This document shows positions 6,746 to 14,811 of a stretch of 14,811 bases of DNA, one piece after another. A model generated the notes under the pieces. It made no database searches. It saw only the letters and a program-made list of their open reading frames with translations, and was not told the origin of the DNA. A program made the position numbers and the translations under genes. The DNA is from a virus (lineage: Duplodnaviria; Heunggongvirae; Uroviricota; Caudoviricetes). Location of the stretch: positions 1 through 14,811 of IMG/VR virus record IMGVR_UViG_2534681835_000032; one strand, 5' to 3'. Numbering within the stretch: position 1 is the stretch's first letter; every line of letters begins with the position of its first letter.

Positions 6746-6944
6746 AAAGTGAATTTTGTGATGCGGTGAATGCGGCTAAGCGCACGCGGAACAGTTAAAA
6801 AGCTATTGTCCTTCGTAGCAGAGTTATGGGTGAAATATCCGGCGTTAATTGTTAACTGGTTAACGTCACCTGGAGGCACCAGGCACCGCATCAACAAAGT
6901 TCACTTCAGTGATGAAAGGTGAGAGAAAATGTTGAATGTAGCTA

Positions 6945-6973
6945 TTGAAAACCAGAACGGGTGGAATTATAGT
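6945..6973 (+). promoter_or_regulatory. Near-consensus sigma70 promoter TTGAAA-N17-TATAGT
   Basis: -35 TTGAAA (6945-6950), 17-bp spacer, -10 TATAGT (6968-6973); predicted transcription start near 6980. Confidence 0.45.
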
Positions 6974-6979
6974 GCACCT

Positions 6980-7057
6980 GCACCTCATAAAACGGGTGCC
7001 GGGATTTGCACCCCGATGATCACTAGAGCGCATAACCGCGCCAAAGCGGTTTTTTTA
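6980..7057 (+). ncRNA. Candidate ~77-nt small RNA / leader transcript upstream of the Rha gene
   Basis: Delimited by the promoter at 6945-6973 and the terminator at 7034-7057; internal hairpin GGGTGC(6994-6999)/GCACCC(7008-7013); carries copy 1 of the bipartite motif TTTGCAC...TCACTAGAG in the single-stranded stretch before the terminator. Confidence 0.35.
7034..7057 (+). terminator. Candidate intrinsic terminator (AACCGC-GCCAAA-GCGGTT + T-run)
   Basis: 6-bp GC-rich stem with 6-nt loop followed by a run of T residues; short stem, so moderate confidence. Confidence 0.4.
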
Positions 7058-7222
7058 TGCGTAAAGCGCAGCCACATTCAGATTATGGTGGGGCGTATGG
7101 GGCCGTTTTCGGGCGGGCCGGATTCTCTAGTGACCGGTAGTGCAAACCCTGTACGTCTCACCACCCATGAGATTTGCACCTCCGGTGGCGAGTTTACCAA
7201 CTTATCACTAGAGGCTGCCATC

Positions 7223-7777
7223 ATGGCTACTATCCCTACCCTTTCTCACCCTGACGTAACCATCGAAAATGGTCGTGCTGTCACTACGTCTGTTGCAGTT
7301 GCAGAGTTTTTCCGCAAGCTGCATAAAAACGTCATTCAAAAAATTGAAGCTCTGGAATGTTCCTCAGAATTCACTGAGCTTAATTTTAAGCCAAGTGAAT
7401 ACACCGACTCAACCGGGCGCAAACTCCCAATGTACCAAATCACCAAAAACGGCTTCGTTTTCCTGGTGATGGGCTTCACCGGCAAAAAAGCCGCTGCATT
7501 TAAAGAAGCCTACATCGCTGAGTTCGATCGCATGGAAGCAGAGCTACGCCAGAATAATACCACTCCCACAAACAAAATCATTCCGGGCGATGGGCGCACT
7601 CTGGTTGTTCGCTTCGACAAATTCGGCAACGTCGAATTCACTGAAACCGTTCCTGATGGCGCTCTCGTCTGTACCCTGGACACTTTCCGCCTTTATCTGG
7701 AGAAACAGGGCTGGACTCTTGTAAACCGAAGCGCAATTAAAAATATGACCGTCGAGCAGTTGCTGAGTATTAAATAG
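7223..7777 (+). CDS. Rha-family phage regulatory protein (Phage_pRha domain), 184 aa
   Basis: N-terminal region (LSHPDVTIENGRAVTTSVAVAEFFRKLHKNVIQKIEAL...SEFTELNF...MYQITKNGFVFLVMGFTGKKAAAFKEAYIAEFDRME) matches the Rha domain; SD GAGG 8 nt before ATG 7223. The track ORF extends in frame to 6929, but that extension is rich in rare codons (AGA, CTA, GGG) and contains promoter, terminator and repeat elements. Confidence 0.6.
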   Translation: MATIPTLSHPDVTIENGRAVTTSVAVAEFFRKLHKNVIQKIEALECSSEFTELNFKPSEYTDSTGRKLPMYQITKNGFVFLVMGFTGKKAAAFKEAYIAEFDRMEAELRQNNTTPTNKIIPGDGRTLVVRFDKFGNVEFTETVPDGALVCTLDTFRLYLEKQGWTLVNRSAIKNMTVEQLLSIK

Positions 7778-7823
7778 TTTTCTGGAATTTTCTTAATACG
7801 AGAAATTTATTAAGGAGATAATT

Positions 7824-8045
7824 ATGATTGCTCATCACTTCGGAACTGATGAAATACCACGTCAGTGTGTGACTCCTGGCGATTATGTTCTTCATGAAGG
7901 CCGGACATATATCGCCTCGGCAAACAATATTAAAAAGCGAAAACTTTATATTCGTAGCCTGACTACAAAAACATGCATTACTGACTGCATGATTAAAGTC
8001 TTCCTCGGTCGTGATGGTTTACCTGTAAAGGCGGAGTCATGGTGA
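7824..8045 (+). CDS. kilR: Killing protein KilR (cell-division inhibitor), 73 aa
   Basis: [76 protein letters not shown]; strong SD AAGGAG 6 nt upstream; size and position match Rac kilR. Confidence 0.75.
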
Positions 8046-8215
8046 TGACTAAGAAAATAAAATGTGCTTACCACCTTTGCAAAAAAGACGTTGAAGAAAG
8101 CAAAGCTATTGAAAGAATGCTTCACTTCATGCACGGGACTTTATCAAAAGACGAACCGAGAAAATATTGCAGTGAAGCTTGTGCCGAAAAAGACCAGATG
8201 GCACACGAACTTTAA
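8039..8215 (+). CDS. ydaE: Small Cys-rich (zinc-binding-like) protein YdaE-like, 58 aa
   Basis: [61 protein letters not shown] with CxxxxC ... CxxxC; overlaps the kilR stop (ATGGTGATGA); SD AAGGCGGAG. Confidence 0.65.
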
Positions 8216-8288
8216 TTAATTGACTATTCGAAACTGAATTTATGCCAGCAATGGCAGGGATTCGCTCAACCTTAATTAAGGAGAAAAA

Positions 8289-8565
8289 ATGATTACCAGT
8301 TATGAAGCCACTGTTGTAACTACCGATGACATTGTTCACGAGGTTAATCTGGAAGGAAAGCGTATTGGCTACGTGATTAAAACAGAAAATAAAGAAACCC
8401 CCATTCACTGTGGTTGATATCGATGGTCCATCAGGCAACGTAAAAACACTTGATGAAGGTGTCAAAAAAATGTGCCTGGTGCATATCGGAAAGAATCTGC
8501 CCGCAGAAAAAAAAGCCGAATTTCTGGCAACTCTGATTGCAATGAAATTAAAAGGTGAAATCTGA
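8289..8565 (+). pseudogene. racC: racC interrupted by a +1 frameshift in a C5 homopolymer (8398-8402)
   Basis: ATG 8289 (SD AAGGAG) reads MITSYEATVVTTDDIVHEVNLEGKRIGYVIKTENKETP then hits TGA at 8415-8417 (42 aa). Removing one C restores ...ETPFTVVDIDGPSGNVKTLDEGVKKMCLVHIGKNLPAEKKAEFLATLIAMKLKGEI ending at 8565 (91 aa). Span length 277 = 3n+1. Confidence 0.6.
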
Positions 8566-8665
8566 AAGAAATAGCCTGCGTATGGCGCAGGCTATGAACA
8601 GTGTGTATCCGGCAAGATTATTCACTGAACAAACGAATTTTAATCTGAGTTGAGGTTAAAAAACA

Positions 8666-11413
8666 ATGAGCACCGATAAACAAGTTTACCCACTGTATTA
8701 CGAAGCAAAAAATGACAAAGTAAGAAAACGTCTCGGTATTAAAGGCGGTTTCTACTGGACTGAAGCGAAAAAATTATCCATTGCCATATCCCGTGGTGCT
8801 GTTGCTATTGACGATGCTGGCTACGATGAAGATGACTTTAAAAAACCCGTTCGCGTAAATTTCCCCGTCGTGAATGACCTTCCACCGGAAGGCGTGTTTG
8901 ATACTGAATTCTGCAACCGCTATGAAAAAGGCGGGGAAGATGGCATCACCATGATGGCTATATCCTTCAATGACAACATCAACGGTGAAGATGCCACAAC
9001 TGCTGGCGATGACAACGATGACCCGGACGGAACTATTCCGGATGATGTGGAGAAAAGCGAATCCCCGGACAGCGACGATGACTGTTCTGAGTGTGAAATT
9101 CCCGTCGCCACTCTGAGCCTTACTCATCGCTTCCTTCACCTCTTCTTCTTCAGCAAGGATGAAGATGGAAAATACCGGCATCACGCCACACCAGAACAAC
9201 GCAATAACGTGATCCGTATGGAGATGGACACAGAGGACAGTTACCTTCAGAGCCTGCTTACTGCTGTGCGCGCCGCACATCATGAACTGGATAAACTGAC
9301 GAACTATCACCTTAGTCGCCTGGCTGAATCTGTAGGGAAAGCATTCCCCCACTCTGCAAATCATCGCATCAGCCCGGCTGAATTCGACAAGTTCATTTCC
9401 ACCTGGATGAAAACTGACTACCTTGATCAGGGCCTGCTGACAAAAGAATGGCAGAACGGAAATTATGTTTCAGGAATTACCCGTACGCCTTCCGGTGCTA
9501 ACGCTGGCGGCGGAAATATTACCGATCGTGGTGAAGGATTCAAACATGATAAGACATCACTCGCACGAGATGTAGCCACCGGCGTTCTGGCCCGTTCAAT
9601 GGATGTGGATATTTATAACCTTCATCCGGCACACGCTAAACGTGTCGAGGAAATTATCGCTGAAAATAAACCGCCCTTTTCTGTTTTCCGCGACAAATTC
9701 ATCACCATGCCTGGCGGGCTGGATTATTCCCGCGCCATCGTGGTTGCGTCCGTAAAAGAAGCACCAATTGGGATCGAGGTTATCCCTGCGCATGTCACTG
9801 AATATCTGAACAAGGTGCTGATTGAAACCGATCATGCCAACCCTGATCCGGAAATCGTGGATATTGCCTGCGGTCGTTCCTCTGCCCCGATGCCGCAGCG
9901 TGTAACAGAAGAAGGAAAACACGATGGTGAAGAAAAACCGCAACCATCTTGCGCAATGGCAGATAAACAGGCAACGGCTGAAACAGTGGAACCGGATGCA
10001 ACTGAACATCATCAGGACACGCAGCCGCTGGATGCTCAGTCACAGGTAAATTCTGTTGATGCGAAATATCAGAAACTGCGGGCAGAACTCCATGAAGCCC
10101 GGAAAACCATTCCGCCCAAAAATCCTGTCGATGCCGACAAATTGCTGGCTGCCTCTCGCGGAGAATTTGTTGAAGGGATTAGCGACCCGAATGATCCGAA
10201 ATGGATTAAGGGGATCCAGACCCGCGATTCTGTGTACCAGAATCAGCCAGAAACGGAACAGAACGACCAGAAAGCGGAACAGAACAGCCCAAATACGCAA
10301 CAAAACGAGCCAGAAACGAAACAACCTGAACCAGTAGTGCAACAGGAACCGGAAAAGATCTGCACCGCCTGCGGCCAGAGGAGTGGCGGCAACTGCCCTG
10401 ATTGTGGCGCGGTGATGGGCGACGCAACATACCAGGAAACATTCGATGAAGAGAATCAGGTTGAAGCTAAGGAAAATGATCCGGAGGAAATGGAAGGCGC
10501 TGAACATCCGCACAATGAGAATGCTGGCAGCGATCCGCATCGCGATTGCAGTGATGAAACTGGCGAAGTCGCAGATCCCGTAATCGTAGAAGACATAGAG
10601 CCAGGTATTTATTACGGAATTTCGAATGAGAATTACCACGTAGGTCCCGGTGTCAGTAAGTCTCAGCTCGATGACATTGCTGATACTCCGGCACTGTATT
10701 TGTGGCGTAAAAATGCCCCCGTGGACAACACAAAGACAAAAACGCTCGATTTAGGAACCGCTTTCCACTTCCGGGTACTTGAACCGGAAGAATTCAGTAA
10801 CCGCTTTATCGTAGCACCTGAATTTAACCGCCGTACAAACGCCGGAAAAGAAGAAGAGAAAGCGTTTCTGATGGAATGCGCAAGCACAGGAAAAACGGTT
10901 ATCACTGCGGAAGAAGGTCGGAAAATTGAACTCATGTATCAAAGCGTTATGGCTTTGCCGCTGGGGCAATGGCTTGTTGAAAGCGCCGGACACGCTGAAT
11001 CATCAATTTACTGGGAAGATCCTGAAACAGGAATTTTGTGTCGGTGCCGTCCGGACAAAATTATCCCTGAATTTCACTGGATCATGGACGTGAAAACTAC
11101 GGCGGATATTCAACGATTCAAAACCGCTTATTACGACTACCGCTATCACGTTCAGGATGCATTCTACAGTGACGGTTATGAAGCACAGTTTGGAGTGCAG
11201 CCAACTTTCGTTTTTCTGGTTGCCAGCACAACTATTGAATGCGGACGTTATCCGGTTGAAATTTTCATGATGGGCGAAGAAGCAAAACTGGCAGGTCAGC
11301 TGGAATATCACCGCAATCTGCGAACCCTGGCTGACTGCCTCAATACCAATGAATGGCCAGCTATTAAGACGTTATCACTGCCCCGCTGGGCTAAGGAATA
11401 TGCAAATGACTAA
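8666..11413 (+). CDS. recE: Exodeoxyribonuclease VIII (RecE), 915 aa
   Basis: Long ORF whose C-terminal ~600 aa are recognisable as RecE (e.g. [34 protein letters not shown], nuclease domain ...[40 protein letters not shown]...); immediately followed by, and overlapping, recT. Confidence 0.9.
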
Positions 11414-12215
11414 GCAACCACCAATCGCAAAAGCCGATCTGCAAAAAACTCAGGGAAACCGTGCACCAGCAGCAATTAAAAATAACGACATGATTAGTTT
11501 TATTAACCAGCCATCAATGAAAGAGCAACTGGCAGCAGCTCTTCCACGCCATATGACGGCTGAACGTATGATCCGTATCGCCACCACAGAAATTCGTAAA
11601 GTTCCGGCGTTAGGAAACTGTGACACTATGAGTTTTGTCAGTGCAATCGTACAGTGTTCACAGCTCGGACTTGAGCCAGGTAGCGCCCTCGGTCATGCAT
11701 ATTTACTGCCTTTTGGTAATAAAAACGAAAAGAGCGGTAAAAAAAACGTTCAGCTAATCATTGGCTATCGCGGCATGATTGATCTGGCTCGCCGTTCAGG
11801 TCAAATCGCCAGCCTGTCAGCCCGTGTTGTCCGTGAAGGTGACGAATTTAATTTCGAATTTGGCCTTGATGAAAAGTTAATACACCGCCCAGGAGAAAAC
11901 GAAGATGCCCCGGTTACCCACGTCTATGCTGTCGCAAGACTGAAAGACGGAGGTACTCAGTTTGAAGTTATGACGCGCAAACAGATTGAGCTGGTGCGCA
12001 GCCAGAGTAAGGCTGGTAATAACGGGCCATGGGTAACTCACTGGGAAGAAATGGCAAAAAAAACGGCTATTCGTCGCCTGTTTAAATACCTGCCTGTCTC
12101 AATTGAAATCCAGCGTGCAGTATCAATGGATGAAAAGGAACCACTGACAATCGATCCGGCAGACTCCTCTGTATTAACCGGGGAATACAGTGTGATCGAT
12201 AATTCAGAAGAATAA
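11406..12215 (+). CDS. recT: Recombinase RecT (single-strand annealing protein), 269 aa
   Basis: Starts [28 protein letters not shown]... ; ATG overlaps the recE stop by 8 nt. Track ORF start at 11349 is an upstream in-frame extension that would overlap recE further. Confidence 0.9.
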
Positions 12216-12271
12216 TTCAGCCTGGCGGTGTAATGCACCGCCAACGCGAGACAGTTTTTATGACAAAAATT

Positions 12272-12466
12272 ATGAGATATGACGATGTTAAACCATGTCC
12301 GTTTTGTGGTTGTCCATCTGTTACGGTGAAAGCAATTTCAGGATATTACCGGGCAAAATGCAACGGATGCGAATCCCGAACTGGCTATGGTGGAAGTGAA
12401 AAAGAAGCACTCGAAAGATGGAATAAACGAACTACTGGAAATAATAATGGAGGTGTTCATGTATAA
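12272..12466 (+). CDS. ralR: RalR / Lar (restriction alleviation; type I toxin of the RalR-RalA pair), 64 aa
   Basis: MRYDDVKPCPFCGCPSVTVKAISGYYRAKCNGCESRTGYGGSEKEALERWNKRTTGNNNGGVHV, recognised as RalR; in-frame upstream ATGs at 12260 and 12233 are alternative starts; no clear SD. Confidence 0.75.
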   Translation: MRYDDVKPCPFCGCPSVTVKAISGYYRAKCNGCESRTGYGGSEKEALERWNKRTTGNNNGGVHV

Positions 12467-12647
12467 AATAACTGCCACTATTGAAAAAGAAGGTGGCACT
12501 CCTACTAACTGGACAAGATATTCAAAATCTAAATTAACGAAATCAGAATGCGAAAAAATGCTCTCAGGGAAAAAAGAAGCAGGCGTGTCCAGAGAGCAGA
12601 AAGTAAAGCTGATAAATTTTAATTGCGAGAAACTTCTGTCCTCGTGA
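12459..12647 (+). CDS. ydaC: Small protein YdaC-like, 62 aa
   Basis: MYKITATIEKEGGTPTNWTRYSKSKLTKSECEKMLSGKKEAGVSREQKVKLINFNCEKLLSS; SD GGAGG 6 nt upstream of ATG 12459; overlaps the ralR stop by 8 nt. Confidence 0.65.
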   Translation: MYKITATIEKEGGTPTNWTRYSKSKLTKSECEKMLSGKKEAGVSREQKVKLINFNCEKLLSS

Positions 12648-12753
12648 GTTGCATTATATACAAATTAGAACTTCATAGCTGATTATTAAAAATCAACCAC
12701 ACCCGCCAGTATTCTGTATATTTACTGGCGGTCATATCGTAAGAGGTATGGCA

Positions 12754-13035
12754 ATGAATCTTGTGACACTCAAAACGTGGGGAAAACTCAGATATCCGGA
12801 TAACCCACCATCAATATCAACGCTGAGACGATGGGCAAGGAATGGAAACATTTATCCTGCACCTGAACTACACGGGAGGAGTTACAGGGTGGTTCCGGAA
12901 GCTTTCTATATCAACCCCAATAAGGTTGATACCGATATAACACACCATCAGCCTAATGGGCGACAAGGGAGAGACAGTCCGTTACTGGAGAAGTTAAAAC
13001 ATGCAGCGGAAAAAATACGATCCCAATTTGCCTAA
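12754..13035 (+). CDS. xis: Excisionase (lambda Xis-like), about 93 aa
   Basis: N-terminus LVTLKTWGKLRYPDNPPSISTLRRWARNGNIYPAPELHGRSYRV resembles the lambda Xis winged helix; SD AAGAGG 7 nt before ATG 12754 (ATG 12748 is an alternative); overlaps int as in lambda. Confidence 0.7.
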   Translation: MNLVTLKTWGKLRYPDNPPSISTLRRWARNGNIYPAPELHGRSYRVVPEAFYINPNKVDTDITHHQPNGRQGRDSPLLEKLKHAAEKIRSQFA

Positions 13036-14077
13036 AAACTTAACATATCGAAGGAGGGACAAAGCATATTACTGGCGCAACCCTCTGACGAAAGAAGAAT
13101 TTACACTAGGTAAAATTTCAAGAAGAGATGCAATCGCGCAGGCAATTGAAGCAAATCACTATATATACAAAAACTACTCTACTGCTGCCTTAATTGAAAA
13201 ACTTAAAGGGTTCGACTCATTTACTATGGCAGACTGGATTGAACGTTACAAAACGATTCTTATAAGGAGAAAAGTGTCCAGAAATACTTATAAAATTCGG
13301 GTAAATCAACTGGAGACAATAAAAGAAAAATTGGGAGAGATTTTACTGACAGAAATAACCACTCGCCATATTGCCGAGTTTCTTGATTTGTGGATTGAAG
13401 GAGGGAAAAACACAATGGCAGGATCAATGCGTTCTGTGTTGTCTGATATGTTTCGTGAGGCCATTGTTGAAGGACGTATATCTCAAAATCCAGTAACGCC
13501 AACAAGAGCACCGAAAATAGTAGTTACAAGAGAACGACTGAAACTAAAGACATACAACTGCATCAGGGAGGCAGCAGATCAACTTCCGGCATGGTTCCCA
13601 TTAGCTATGGATTTAGCCCTTGTAACAGGACAACGTCGCGAAGACATAACGAATATGCGGTTTAGTGATATTTATGATGATCGTCTCCACATCAGGCAAA
13701 TTAAGACAGGAATGATGATTGCTATCCCCCTGTCACTCAGCCTTCCTGTCGCTGGTCTACGGCTTGGTACAGTAGTTGAACAGTGCCGCCTGGTAAGCCG
13801 GGGAGATTATCTAATCAGTGCCGGGATTAGAAAAAACAGCCCTGACGGCAGCATTCACCCGGATGGCCTGACAAAAAAATTTGTCGCAGCCAGAAAATTA
13901 ACAGGTATCCAGTTCAGTGAAAACCCACCAACTTTTCACGAGATCAGAAGCCTGGCTGGACGATTGTACAAAGAAACATATGGAGAAGAATTTGCTCAGC
14001 GTCTACTTGGCCACACATCGGAGAAGACAACAAAAATGTATCTTGATGAGAGAGAAAAAACGTACTTACTGCTCTGA
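13001..14077 (+). CDS. int: Lambda-type tyrosine integrase, 358 aa
   Basis: Collinear with lambda Int (N-terminal arm-binding domain [28 protein letters not shown]; catalytic region [34 protein letters not shown] with the presumed catalytic Tyr). Confidence 0.9.
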
Positions 14078-14225
14078 TTTTAACGTAAATGGATTGTTAA
14101 ATGTATTTTGGTTGTGATATAACCAAAAAAGACCGGAATACAGAAATTCGAGTAAATTTCGGGGAATTTCGGGGAGACGCTTGCAACTGATTGATTTTAA
14201 ATACAATTAAAAAAAGACCGAGTAC
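14078..14225. other. attL-like junction: phage P-prime arm with arm-type repeats, and putative core overlapping the 3-prime end of sdsR
   Basis: Region between the int stop and the first recognisable host sequence; contains tandem AATTTCGGGG repeats and two near-copies of AAAAAAGACCG(A/G)(A/G)TAC. Exact crossover point not determinable from one junction. Confidence 0.45.
14144..14174 (+). repeat. Tandem direct repeats AAATTCGAGT / AAATTTCGGGG / AATTTCGGGG (candidate arm-type Int-binding sites)
   Basis: Three adjacent 10-11 bp repeats (two perfect) 67-97 bp downstream of the int stop, in the position of lambda P-prime arm sites. Confidence 0.35.
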
Positions 14226-14311
14226 GATTCCTGTATTCGGTCCAGGGAAATGGCTCTTGGGAGAGAGCCGTGCGCTAAAAGTTGGCATTAATGCAGGCTT
14301 AGTTGCCTTGC
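14209..14311 (-). ncRNA. sdsR: SdsR (RyeB) RpoS-dependent small RNA, ~103 nt
   Basis: Minus-strand sequence GCAAGGCAACTAAGCCTGCATTAATGCCAACTTTTAGCGCACGGCTCTCTCCCAAGAGCCATTTCCCTGGACCGAATACAGGAATCGTACTCGGTCTTTTTT matches SdsR as recalled from memory; terminal hairpin plus U-run at the 3-prime end. Confidence 0.75.
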
Positions 14312-14350
14312 CCTTTAAGAATAGATGACGACGCCAGGTTTTCCAGTTTG
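14312..14350 (-). promoter_or_regulatory. sdsR promoter region with sigmaS-type -10 (TCTATTCT)
   Basis: Minus-strand TCTATTCT ends ~6 nt upstream of the SdsR 5-prime G; consistent with the known RpoS dependence of sdsR. Confidence 0.4.
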
Positions 14351-14400
14351 CGTGCAAAATGGTCAATAAAAAGCGTGGTGGTCATCAGCTGAAATGTTAA

Positions 14401-14440
14401 AAACCGCCCGTTCTGGTGAAAGAACTGAGGCGGTTTTTTT
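14401..14440 (+). terminator. Strong intrinsic terminator (likely RyeA 3-prime end; possibly bidirectional for the yebY-like gene)
   Basis: Long GC-rich interrupted stem (14401-14414 with 14421-14436) followed by a run of T residues on the plus strand; A-run upstream gives weaker terminator character on the minus strand. Confidence 0.65.
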
Positions 14441-14469
14441 ATTGGAAATCAAAAGGCTATTTTAGGTAA

Positions 14470-14811
14470 TTAACAGAGTTTTTCAGCTCGTTCTATAAAC
14501 GGTGCCAGACTCATTTTTTCGCCGGGATTGTTAGGATCATCAATCTGAATCACCGAAATGGGTTGGGCTTTAGTCTTCCCACTGGCAACTTCCTTTTGTG
14601 CGATATCGTTTAAAGGATACTGCACGAGGGTACTTGGGTTAATGACATACAAAGCATTACCCGGTCTGCAAGTCAGCATCACCTCTTCGCGATTAAACGC
14701 CCATTTGTCTTTACCCACTTCAAAACGACTGACGGTAATCACCTGCGGTGCAGCCAGCGCCGCTGCAGAACTGGTGAGTAACAGAAACGTCAGAATACTT
14801 TTTTTCATCAT
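14470..14811 (-). CDS. yebY: Secreted DUF2511-like host protein (YebY-like), 113 aa
   Basis: [40 protein letters not shown]... with a signal peptide; start codon at the window edge; in E. coli the sdsR/ryeA locus lies beside yebY. Symbol assigned from memory and context. Confidence 0.6.

Follow-up and report, generated by a model that had tools for sequence, protein, structure and literature searches.

A predicted IsrK–C4 RNA control module upstream of rha, an antirepressor-type gene of the early-left operon in a Rac-like prophage

Phages P1 and P7 carry an immunity region, immI, in which the antisense RNA C4 controls icd–ant by means of the short boxes a1/b1 and a2/b2 (Citron and Schuster 1990, as cited in PMC8201110 and PMC12197685). 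C4 blocks expression of ant by binding around the ribosome-binding site (RBS), as stated in PMC12197685 and likewise in the notes to the P1 record (NC_005856), which annotates the P1c4 promoter, a1 (7 nt), b1 (8 nt), c4 (77 nt), a2, b2 and, 10 nt after b2, the ATG of icd. In Barquist et al. (2013; PMC3632133) the small RNA IsrK is equated with seqA and C4 with the CI RNA of the satellite phage P4, and an 'IsrK-C4 immunity system' is noted in some lambdoid prophages. For Gifsy-1 of Salmonella, and for Gifsy-1 only, IsrK has been shown to act in trans on its own read-through mRNA and to bind Hfq (Hershko-Shalev et al. 2016; PMC4825925). Here we describe a related locus in a 14,811-nt stretch of viral DNA (IMG/VR record IMGVR_UViG_2534681835_000032, positions 1–14,811; 'the window' below). 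Judged from sequence, the segment at 6945–7225 is almost certainly an IsrK–C4 module, an RNA control module that precedes rha, an antirepressor-type gene; the prophage is Rac-like, and the module lies in its early-left operon. The locus is a further example of a known phage RNA system and not a new type of element.

An Rfam scan of the whole window places two RNA families in tandem on the plus strand: isrK (RF01394; 68.6 bits against a gathering threshold (GA) of 50, model positions 1–77 of 77) at 6980–7056, and C4 (RF01695; 78.1 bits, GA 45, model positions 1–87 of 87) at 7081–7168. The c4-a1b1 model (RF03163) stays below threshold in the window (18.8 bits against a GA of 46.7, at 6967–7019, E = 0.015), and by these scores isrK is the better model for the upstream unit. 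A bipartite motif runs through both RNAs and into the leader of rha. A first-pass annotation, made from the letters of this DNA alone, had noticed its three copies, and the six box coordinates and sequences that it gave, like those of the Shine–Dalgarno sequence (SD) and the ATG of rha, are all exact. Copies 1 and 3 are direct, and copy 2 is perfectly complementary to both. The pattern TTTGCAC-N(5–30)-TCACTAGAG has three matches in the window (two on the plus strand, one on the minus), whereas 200 shuffles that preserve dinucleotides gave 0.00 on average. The same annotation knew of no such element in Rac-like prophages; its claim of novelty fails, as the module is the known C4/IsrK system (RF01695, RF01394; a1/b1–c4–a2/b2 in P1, seqA–CI–seqC in P4). 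The features of the module are as follows.

6945–6973, plus strand: promoter-like site of the IsrK-like RNA (-35 TTGAAA at 6945–6950, 17-nt spacer, -10 TATAGT at 6968–6973; 10/12 in a consensus scan)
6980–7056, plus strand: IsrK-like small RNA (Rfam RF01394), the equivalent of P1 c4-a1b1 and P4 seqA
7005–7011, plus strand: a1 box TTTGCAC (copy 1, first half), complementary to a', at the position of the annotated P1 a1
7020–7028, plus strand: b1 box TCACTAGAG (copy 1, second half), complementary to b', at the position of the annotated P1 b1
7034–7056, plus strand: predicted intrinsic IsrK terminator (stem 7034–7051 followed by U7; terminator scan)
7081–7168, plus strand: C4-type antisense RNA (Rfam RF01695), with a 17-bp basal stem and two hairpins
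7125–7133, plus strand: b' box CTCTAGTGA (copy 2), reverse complement of b1 and b2, in the 12-nt loop of the second C4 hairpin
7140–7146, plus strand: a' box GTGCAAA (copy 2), reverse complement of a1 and a2, in the single-stranded 3' junction of C4
7173–7179, plus strand: a2 target box TTTGCAC (copy 3) on the rha leader, at the same offset from the C4 end as the annotated P1 a2
7205–7214, plus strand: b2 target box TCACTAGAG (copy 3, 7205–7213), with G7214 added as a G-U pair; it overlaps the rha SD, GAGG, at 7211–7214
7223–7777, plus strand: rha gene, ATG at 7223, 184 aa, with Phage_pRha at aa 21–105 (Pfam, 108.8 bits)

The C4-type RNA has a predicted minimum free energy (MFE) of -41.6 kcal/mol (z = -3.1), and its Rfam alignment and MFE structure agree on a long basal stem with two internal hairpins. 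All three C4 helices are 100% paired in the 20 homologous loci that were aligned, with 10 compensatory pairs. Copy 2, which the first-pass annotation had treated as a bare switch strand, instead makes up the loop and the junction of this stable, covariation-supported fold. The conserved ends GGUGGGG...CACCACC align with those of the 77-nt mature P1 C4, and from this alignment mature C4 is predicted at about 7087–7165 (79 nt).

Copy 1 lies within a 77-nt unit bounded by a promoter-like and a terminator-like site, as had been proposed, both being found by scans and conserved in position. The predicted transcript start is near 6980, where the Rfam isrK model also begins, and the promoter hexamers are positionally conserved across 19 loci as TTGAY and TAYAMT. 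The IsrK-like RNA is predicted to fold into a hairpin at 6980–6999, with compensatory change in 5 of its 6 pairs, and a second hairpin at 7000–7015 that holds a1 in its loop, followed by a single-stranded b1 and the terminator. Read-through past this terminator would give a C4–rha transcript; for Gifsy-1, this logic has experimental backing (PMC4825925). The suggestion that copy 1 could also act in trans finds support in Gifsy-1, where the homologous IsrK does so experimentally (PMC4825925).

On the target side, a':a2 and b':b2 form 7/7 and 9/9 Watson–Crick pairs, and b2 lies 9 nt before the ATG, so that the predicted overlap of copy 3 with the SD of a conserved start is borne out. Position 7223 is likely the true start of rha: its sequence context GAGGCTGCCATCATGGCTAC is conserved, even in P4, and the homologous start is used in the annotation of F039, PhiR12_3, VT2phi_272 and TL-2011c. 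A predicted leader hairpin at 7176–7218 would pair CCUC (7179–7182) with GAGG of the SD and draw a2 close to b2. This hairpin is not relied on here, its comparative support being weak (62% of cells paired).

The comparative evidence comes from two collections. A blastn search found the module in 208 phage records; 18 loci were fetched, all of which carry C4 and isrK in tandem, and an alignment of 20 loci was analysed. A pattern scan of IMG/VR added 119 further unique viral modules. Compensatory changes, which the first-pass annotation had suggested looking for, are found in the alignment, and the three copies covary in both collections. Across the 20 loci, pairing within the isrK and C4 helices stands at 95.9% and compensatory change is seen at 16 pairs; the covariation score of these helices (0.348) was reached in none of 500 shuffles (0.175), slid partners giving at most 0.08. 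Between the boxes, a1:a' and b1:b' are paired in 95.8% of cells, with compensatory change at 14 of their 16 pairs. Their covariation score of 0.797 compares with 0.205 in shuffles, none of 500 being as high. For a2 and b2, a register-free search for the best helix gives a pairing of 0.97–1.0 within their own locus. The foreign-probe controls used with this search give high values, since the boxes are partly alike in sequence and G-U pairs are allowed. The reading of the three copies as RNA pairing partners is therefore upheld by complementarity in the window and by covariation of the pairings among homologues. Counted on the columns of the MAFFT alignment, copy2:copy3 had been just 63.6% paired, or 70% after a slide of -2, because b2 and part of a2 are mis-registered by 2–3 columns in most loci; this count was replaced by the register-free search.

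The boxes themselves are highly diverse. About 9 a boxes and at least 11 b boxes occur in 18 combinations among the 20 loci, and the a box of the window is found with five other b boxes. The 119 modules contain 48 b' loops and 18 a' junctions in 68 combinations, a and b boxes reassorting independently, while all four inter-box helices reach at least 6 bp in 112 of them and the distance from the end of b2 to the ATG is 8–9 nt in most. The b box of the window, TCACTAGAG, was seen in none of the other modules of this 119-module sample. Where b1 and b2 differ, the difference usually keeps the pairing with b' through G-U, which points to RNA pairing and not to recognition at the DNA level.

Pairing of b' is stronger for b2 in 78 modules, stronger for b1 in 30 and equal in 11, in counts that are uncorrected for relatedness. 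The weaker b1:b' helix typically contains one G-U pair or is shorter; in the window both b1 and b2 are perfect. P1 also has a b1 (GTTAGTGC) that is weaker than its b2 (GTTAGTGA). Two IsrK–C4 modules can reside in one phage or contig, sometimes in tandem 650–1000 nt apart. In the six cases examined, namely phage VT2phi_272 (5429–5611 and 17384–17571) and five viral contigs, with shared ancestry uncorrected, the co-resident modules always differ in at least one box.

Of the described systems, P1 immI has the same order of elements as the window (promoter, a1, b1, C4, a2, b2, start), the same C4 family, b' in a loop and a' in a junction. The spacings are nearly equal as well: a boxes are 7 nt long, b2 ends 9–10 nt before the ATG and C4 ends 3–8 nt before a2. 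The regulated gene is of the antirepressor type in both. In P1, however, the b boxes are 8 nt long (9 nt in the window), and b2 covers the RBS of icd, a leader gene in its own right on which ant expression depends, whereas b2 of the window lies directly before rha with no icd-like open reading frame (ORF). The P1 target is Ant (PF03374) and that of the window is Rha (PF09669), with Phage_pRha as its sole domain. The P1 upstream unit scores as c4-a1b1, a model also reached by Gifsy-1, while that of the window scores as isrK. P1 further has a C1 operator at the promoter. As the window contains neither icd nor an ANT/KilAC domain, its module appears to work like immI without being an immI operon.

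The isrK–orf45 (STnc1160)–anrP region of Gifsy-1, itself a lambdoid prophage, shares with the window the tandem of the same two Rfam families and three copies of the boxes. It has an IsrK promoter and a leaky terminator, where the window has promoter-like and terminator-like sites. The box sequences differ, and the b' loop is 4 nt shorter in Gifsy-1. There, orf45 (34210–34074, minus strand) ends in an ATGA that overlaps the anrP start, while in the window the corresponding frame is fused in phase to rha. The Gifsy-1 module adjoins antQ in the late region and that of the window lies in the early-left operon before kilR–recET; the downstream AnrP is an ORF6N protein, to which the Rha of the window is unrelated.

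P4 has isrK (60.8 bits) followed by C4 (74.9 bits), in the order of the window, and downstream of the third copy both have the SD and start context GGAGGCTGCCATCATGGCTAC. The two RNAs are about 107 nt apart in P4 and 24 nt apart in the window, and in P4 the system is described as ending transcription of the replication operon prematurely, not as controlling an antirepressor. Translation of kil/eta in P4 was reportedly addressed by Forti et al. in 1999. IsrK–C4 modules are already annotated in Shiga toxin (Stx)-converting phages, for example F039 (LC710660), which is 73% identical over the module and has both non-coding RNAs annotated, followed by a homologous Rha-type coding sequence (CDS) and kilR; its boxes are TTAGGAC and CAATCAAGG, against TTTGCAC and TCACTAGAG in the window. 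The window departs from the model systems in its Rha-domain target, in having no separate leader gene of the icd or orf45 type, in the in-phase fusion of the frame and in a b box unseen elsewhere in the sample.

By analogy with these systems, the regulatory logic as a whole, in which C4 represses rha and IsrK competes with C4 and relieves the repression, is on balance probable. Most transcripts would stop at the IsrK terminator, and those that read through would yield C4, probably cut by RNase P to about 79 nt. The b' and a' boxes of C4 would pair with b2 and a2 of the rha mRNA and block ribosome binding, and the pairing would probably also cause Rho-dependent polarity on rha–kilR; Rho-dependent polarity in P1 was reportedly described by Biere et al. 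in 1992. IsrK, with identical boxes, could compete in cis within the precursor (through the copy1:copy2 fold) and in trans as a free small RNA. Since IsrK presents the same two boxes, an excess of it would be expected to free the rha RBS, so that the antirepressor-type protein could be made. The particular a and b sequences would then act as a specificity code that differs between modules. Among the described relatives, C4 and CI RNAs are RNase P substrates, as cited in PMC5499578. In Gifsy-1, anrP translation rises 139-fold when IsrK is provided in trans, and mutating the helix equivalent to a1 has opposite effects in cis and in trans (PMC4825925). For the window, the isolated duplexes reach -13.6 (b':b2) and -7.1 kcal/mol (a':a2), and a forced copy1:copy2 fold comes to -99.1 kcal/mol, against -99.5 at the MFE of the 6980–7240 RNA.

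Several observations weigh against this reading. At its MFE (-99.5 kcal/mol), the RNA at 6980–7240 folds as three separate units, IsrK, C4 and the leader, and a forced nested copy2:copy3 structure (-91.9 kcal/mol) lies 7.6 kcal/mol above it. Cofolding of C4 with its target gains just -1.1 kcal/mol, in models that leave loop–target pairing of the pseudoknot type outside their scope. The antirepressor role of Rha is an assumption, and neither P1 Ant (PF03374) nor AnrP (ORF6N) is related to Rha (PF09669), no similarity being detected in a comparison of Rha with Gifsy-1 AnrP. The authors of the Gifsy-1 study attribute activation to opening of the orf45 RBS and translational coupling (PMC4825925). 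In their experiments STnc1160, the C4 homologue, led to stronger and not weaker growth arrest when co-expressed with IsrK (PMC4825925), a misfit to a simple model of a C4 repressor and an IsrK sponge. Bimolecular cofolding in general (C4 with target, IsrK with C4; change in free energy of about 0 to -1 kcal/mol) was set aside as uninformative because the loop–target pairing is pseudoknot-like and beyond nested modelling. It is more likely that C4 contacts its target as a folded RNA through its loop and junction, as in P1, than through a classic switch between mutually exclusive hairpins.

The main rival to repression by C4 depends on a frame that begins within the C4 RNA.

7085–7222, plus strand: putative orf45-like open frame, with ATGs at 7085 and 7097 in the 5' stem strand of C4, in frame with rha and without a stop

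The orf45 of Gifsy-1 begins at two AUGs in the 5' stem strand of C4 and is needed for anrP expression (PMC4825925); both AUGs are conserved in the alignment with the window, as is the frame. A circuit of this type, which we consider rather unlikely here, would have no repressor C4: the read-through RNA would be silenced in cis by copy1:copy2, and IsrK acting in trans would open the orf45-like start (AUG 7085 or 7097), from which ribosomes would reach rha by in-frame read-through and not by stop/start coupling. Besides the experimental evidence from Gifsy-1, it can draw on the forced copy1:copy2 fold (-99.1 kcal/mol), which is within 0.4 kcal/mol of the MFE, is present in the centroid structure and corresponds to 'structure A' of Gifsy-1, and on the ORF from the C4 AUG, which reaches the downstream start in 81 of 118 modules (60 fused in frame, 21 in another frame). 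In the other 37, however, this ORF stops early, as it does in P1 after 14 codons, and the orf45-like frame is thus not family-wide. The AUGs are buried in the 17-bp stem without a clear SD, the amino-acid sequence is not under selection (see below), and neither the position of b2 over the downstream SD nor the covariation of b2 with b' is explained. Conservation of the nucleotide but not the amino-acid sequence of orf45 is also ascribed to Hershko-Shalev et al. in the passage of PMC12197685 that relays it, in agreement with our values. By analogy with Gifsy-1, ribosomes may read part of 6929–7222. A purely cis-acting switch, as envisaged by the first-pass annotation, would need no processed or trans-acting RNA: a single transcript would toggle between copy2:copy3, with the SD buried, and copy1:copy2, with the SD free. 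The 7 + 9 complementarity is exact both ways, and the copy1:copy2 half of the proposal stands, being nearly isoenergetic with the MFE, while its copy2:copy3 half bears the 7.6 kcal/mol cost given above. With copy 2 held within an independently stable C4 fold that covariation supports, copy 1 furnished with its own terminator, homologous C4 and CI being processed trans-acting RNAs and IsrK acting in trans, such a switch is improbable.

Two further explanations dispense with regulatory RNA. The ORF at 6929–7777 is open throughout and is called by the Prokaryotic Genome Annotation Pipeline (PGAP) as a single 282-aa Rha-family CDS (WP_000935592.1), with no RNAs annotated in the stretch. Pfam Phage_ASH (PF10554) matches aa 14–108 of it (57.2 bits, E = 2.6e-15), and in 11 of 19 loci no stop interrupts the frame between the isrK start and the ATG, so that 6929–7222 could be taken for a genuine N-terminal 'Ash' domain with repeats incidental to coding. 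The other eight loci have in-frame stops. Upstream of 7223 the ratio of nonsynonymous to synonymous polymorphism (pN/pS) is 0.89 in the gene frame and 0.89 and 0.91 in the other frames, against 0.36 in the Rha CDS, and substitutions show no codon periodicity; the variation is concentrated in boxes that covary as RNA pairs. The promoter and the U7 terminator fall within the 282-aa ORF, and the same stretch precedes unrelated proteins (Rha, ORF6N, ORF6N + P22_AR_C, derepression protein, icd/Ant). Phage_ASH also matches, with 75.8 bits, the conceptual translation of the P4 seqA–CI leader, described by Hershko-Shalev et al. as a primary untranslated transcript (PMC4825925). The refutation that the first-pass annotation had foreseen, a conserved N-terminal domain of Rha, is thus not what the region shows, in spite of the ORF and the Pfam match, and we hold such a domain very unlikely. 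Still less probable, in our estimate, is that the repeats are DNA operators for a DNA-binding protein such as the prophage repressor or Rha. It is typical of operators to have direct and inverted repeats close to a promoter, and the P1 C1 operator overlaps the c4 promoter, but here the repeats lie downstream of the promoter and spread over 200 nt, the boxes sit in loops of covariation-supported RNA structures, and copy 2 is in every case the reverse complement of copies 1 and 3, never a direct repeat. In many loci a transition between b1 and b2 keeps the pairing with b' through G-U alone, which is meaningful in RNA only. The 282-aa protein most likely represents two small RNA genes and a 184-aa Rha that starts at 7223, and the Pfam 'Ash' family may largely be the translation of conserved RNA genes. 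Some records annotate a CDS of up to 383 aa straight through both RNAs.

Within the reading in which C4 represses rha and IsrK relieves it, the a and b boxes might, tentatively, be seen as a two-part RNA address code against cross-talk between the many IsrK–C4 modules of one cell or phage, in which both parts must match, IsrK serves as a decoy and the IsrK:C4 ratio sets the threshold for the antirepressor. Such a code is hinted at by the reassortment of a and b boxes, by the differences between co-resident modules and by the stronger pairing of b2, the decoy b1 often being slightly weaker, all in data uncorrected for shared ancestry.

For the window, the main consequence is a correction of the annotation, both RNAs being missing from the RefSeq record. 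On a wider view, lambdoid prophages of pathogenic E. coli, Rac-like as well as Stx-type, are seen to carry the P1/P4-type RNA immunity circuit as a portable cassette, which fronts varied antirepressor-type genes and has highly diversified, covarying recognition boxes. This is relevant to the independent control of induction in co-resident prophages, including Shiga-toxin phages; the underlying principle has been known since 1990. The cassette occupies varied sites: it may lie in the nin region, following ninE, ahead of kil in the early-left operon, or between cII and O, the replication gene. WGPS2 and mEp460 (both 441–1595) and PhiR12_1 (792–1747) are examples, with differing antirepressor-type proteins downstream.

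E. coli O111:H8 strain 8E carries the window at 100% identity, as part of a Rac-like prophage beside yebY and ryeA/ryeB. Copies of 99–100% identity occur in E. coli O157:H7 or O111 strains, and the query sequence also matches five other places in the source genome. The order on the plus strand is a helix–turn–helix repressor-like gene, ydaF, the module, rha, kilR, ydaE, recE, recT, ralR, xis and int. Other Rfam matches in the window are sok next to hokD (151–325, minus strand) and the RalA antitoxin RNA opposite ralR (12465–12643, minus strand). SraC/RyeA and SdsR/RyeB match at 14205–14349 (plus and minus strands), just outside the integrase gene, which places the prophage next to the ryeA/ryeB–yebY locus.

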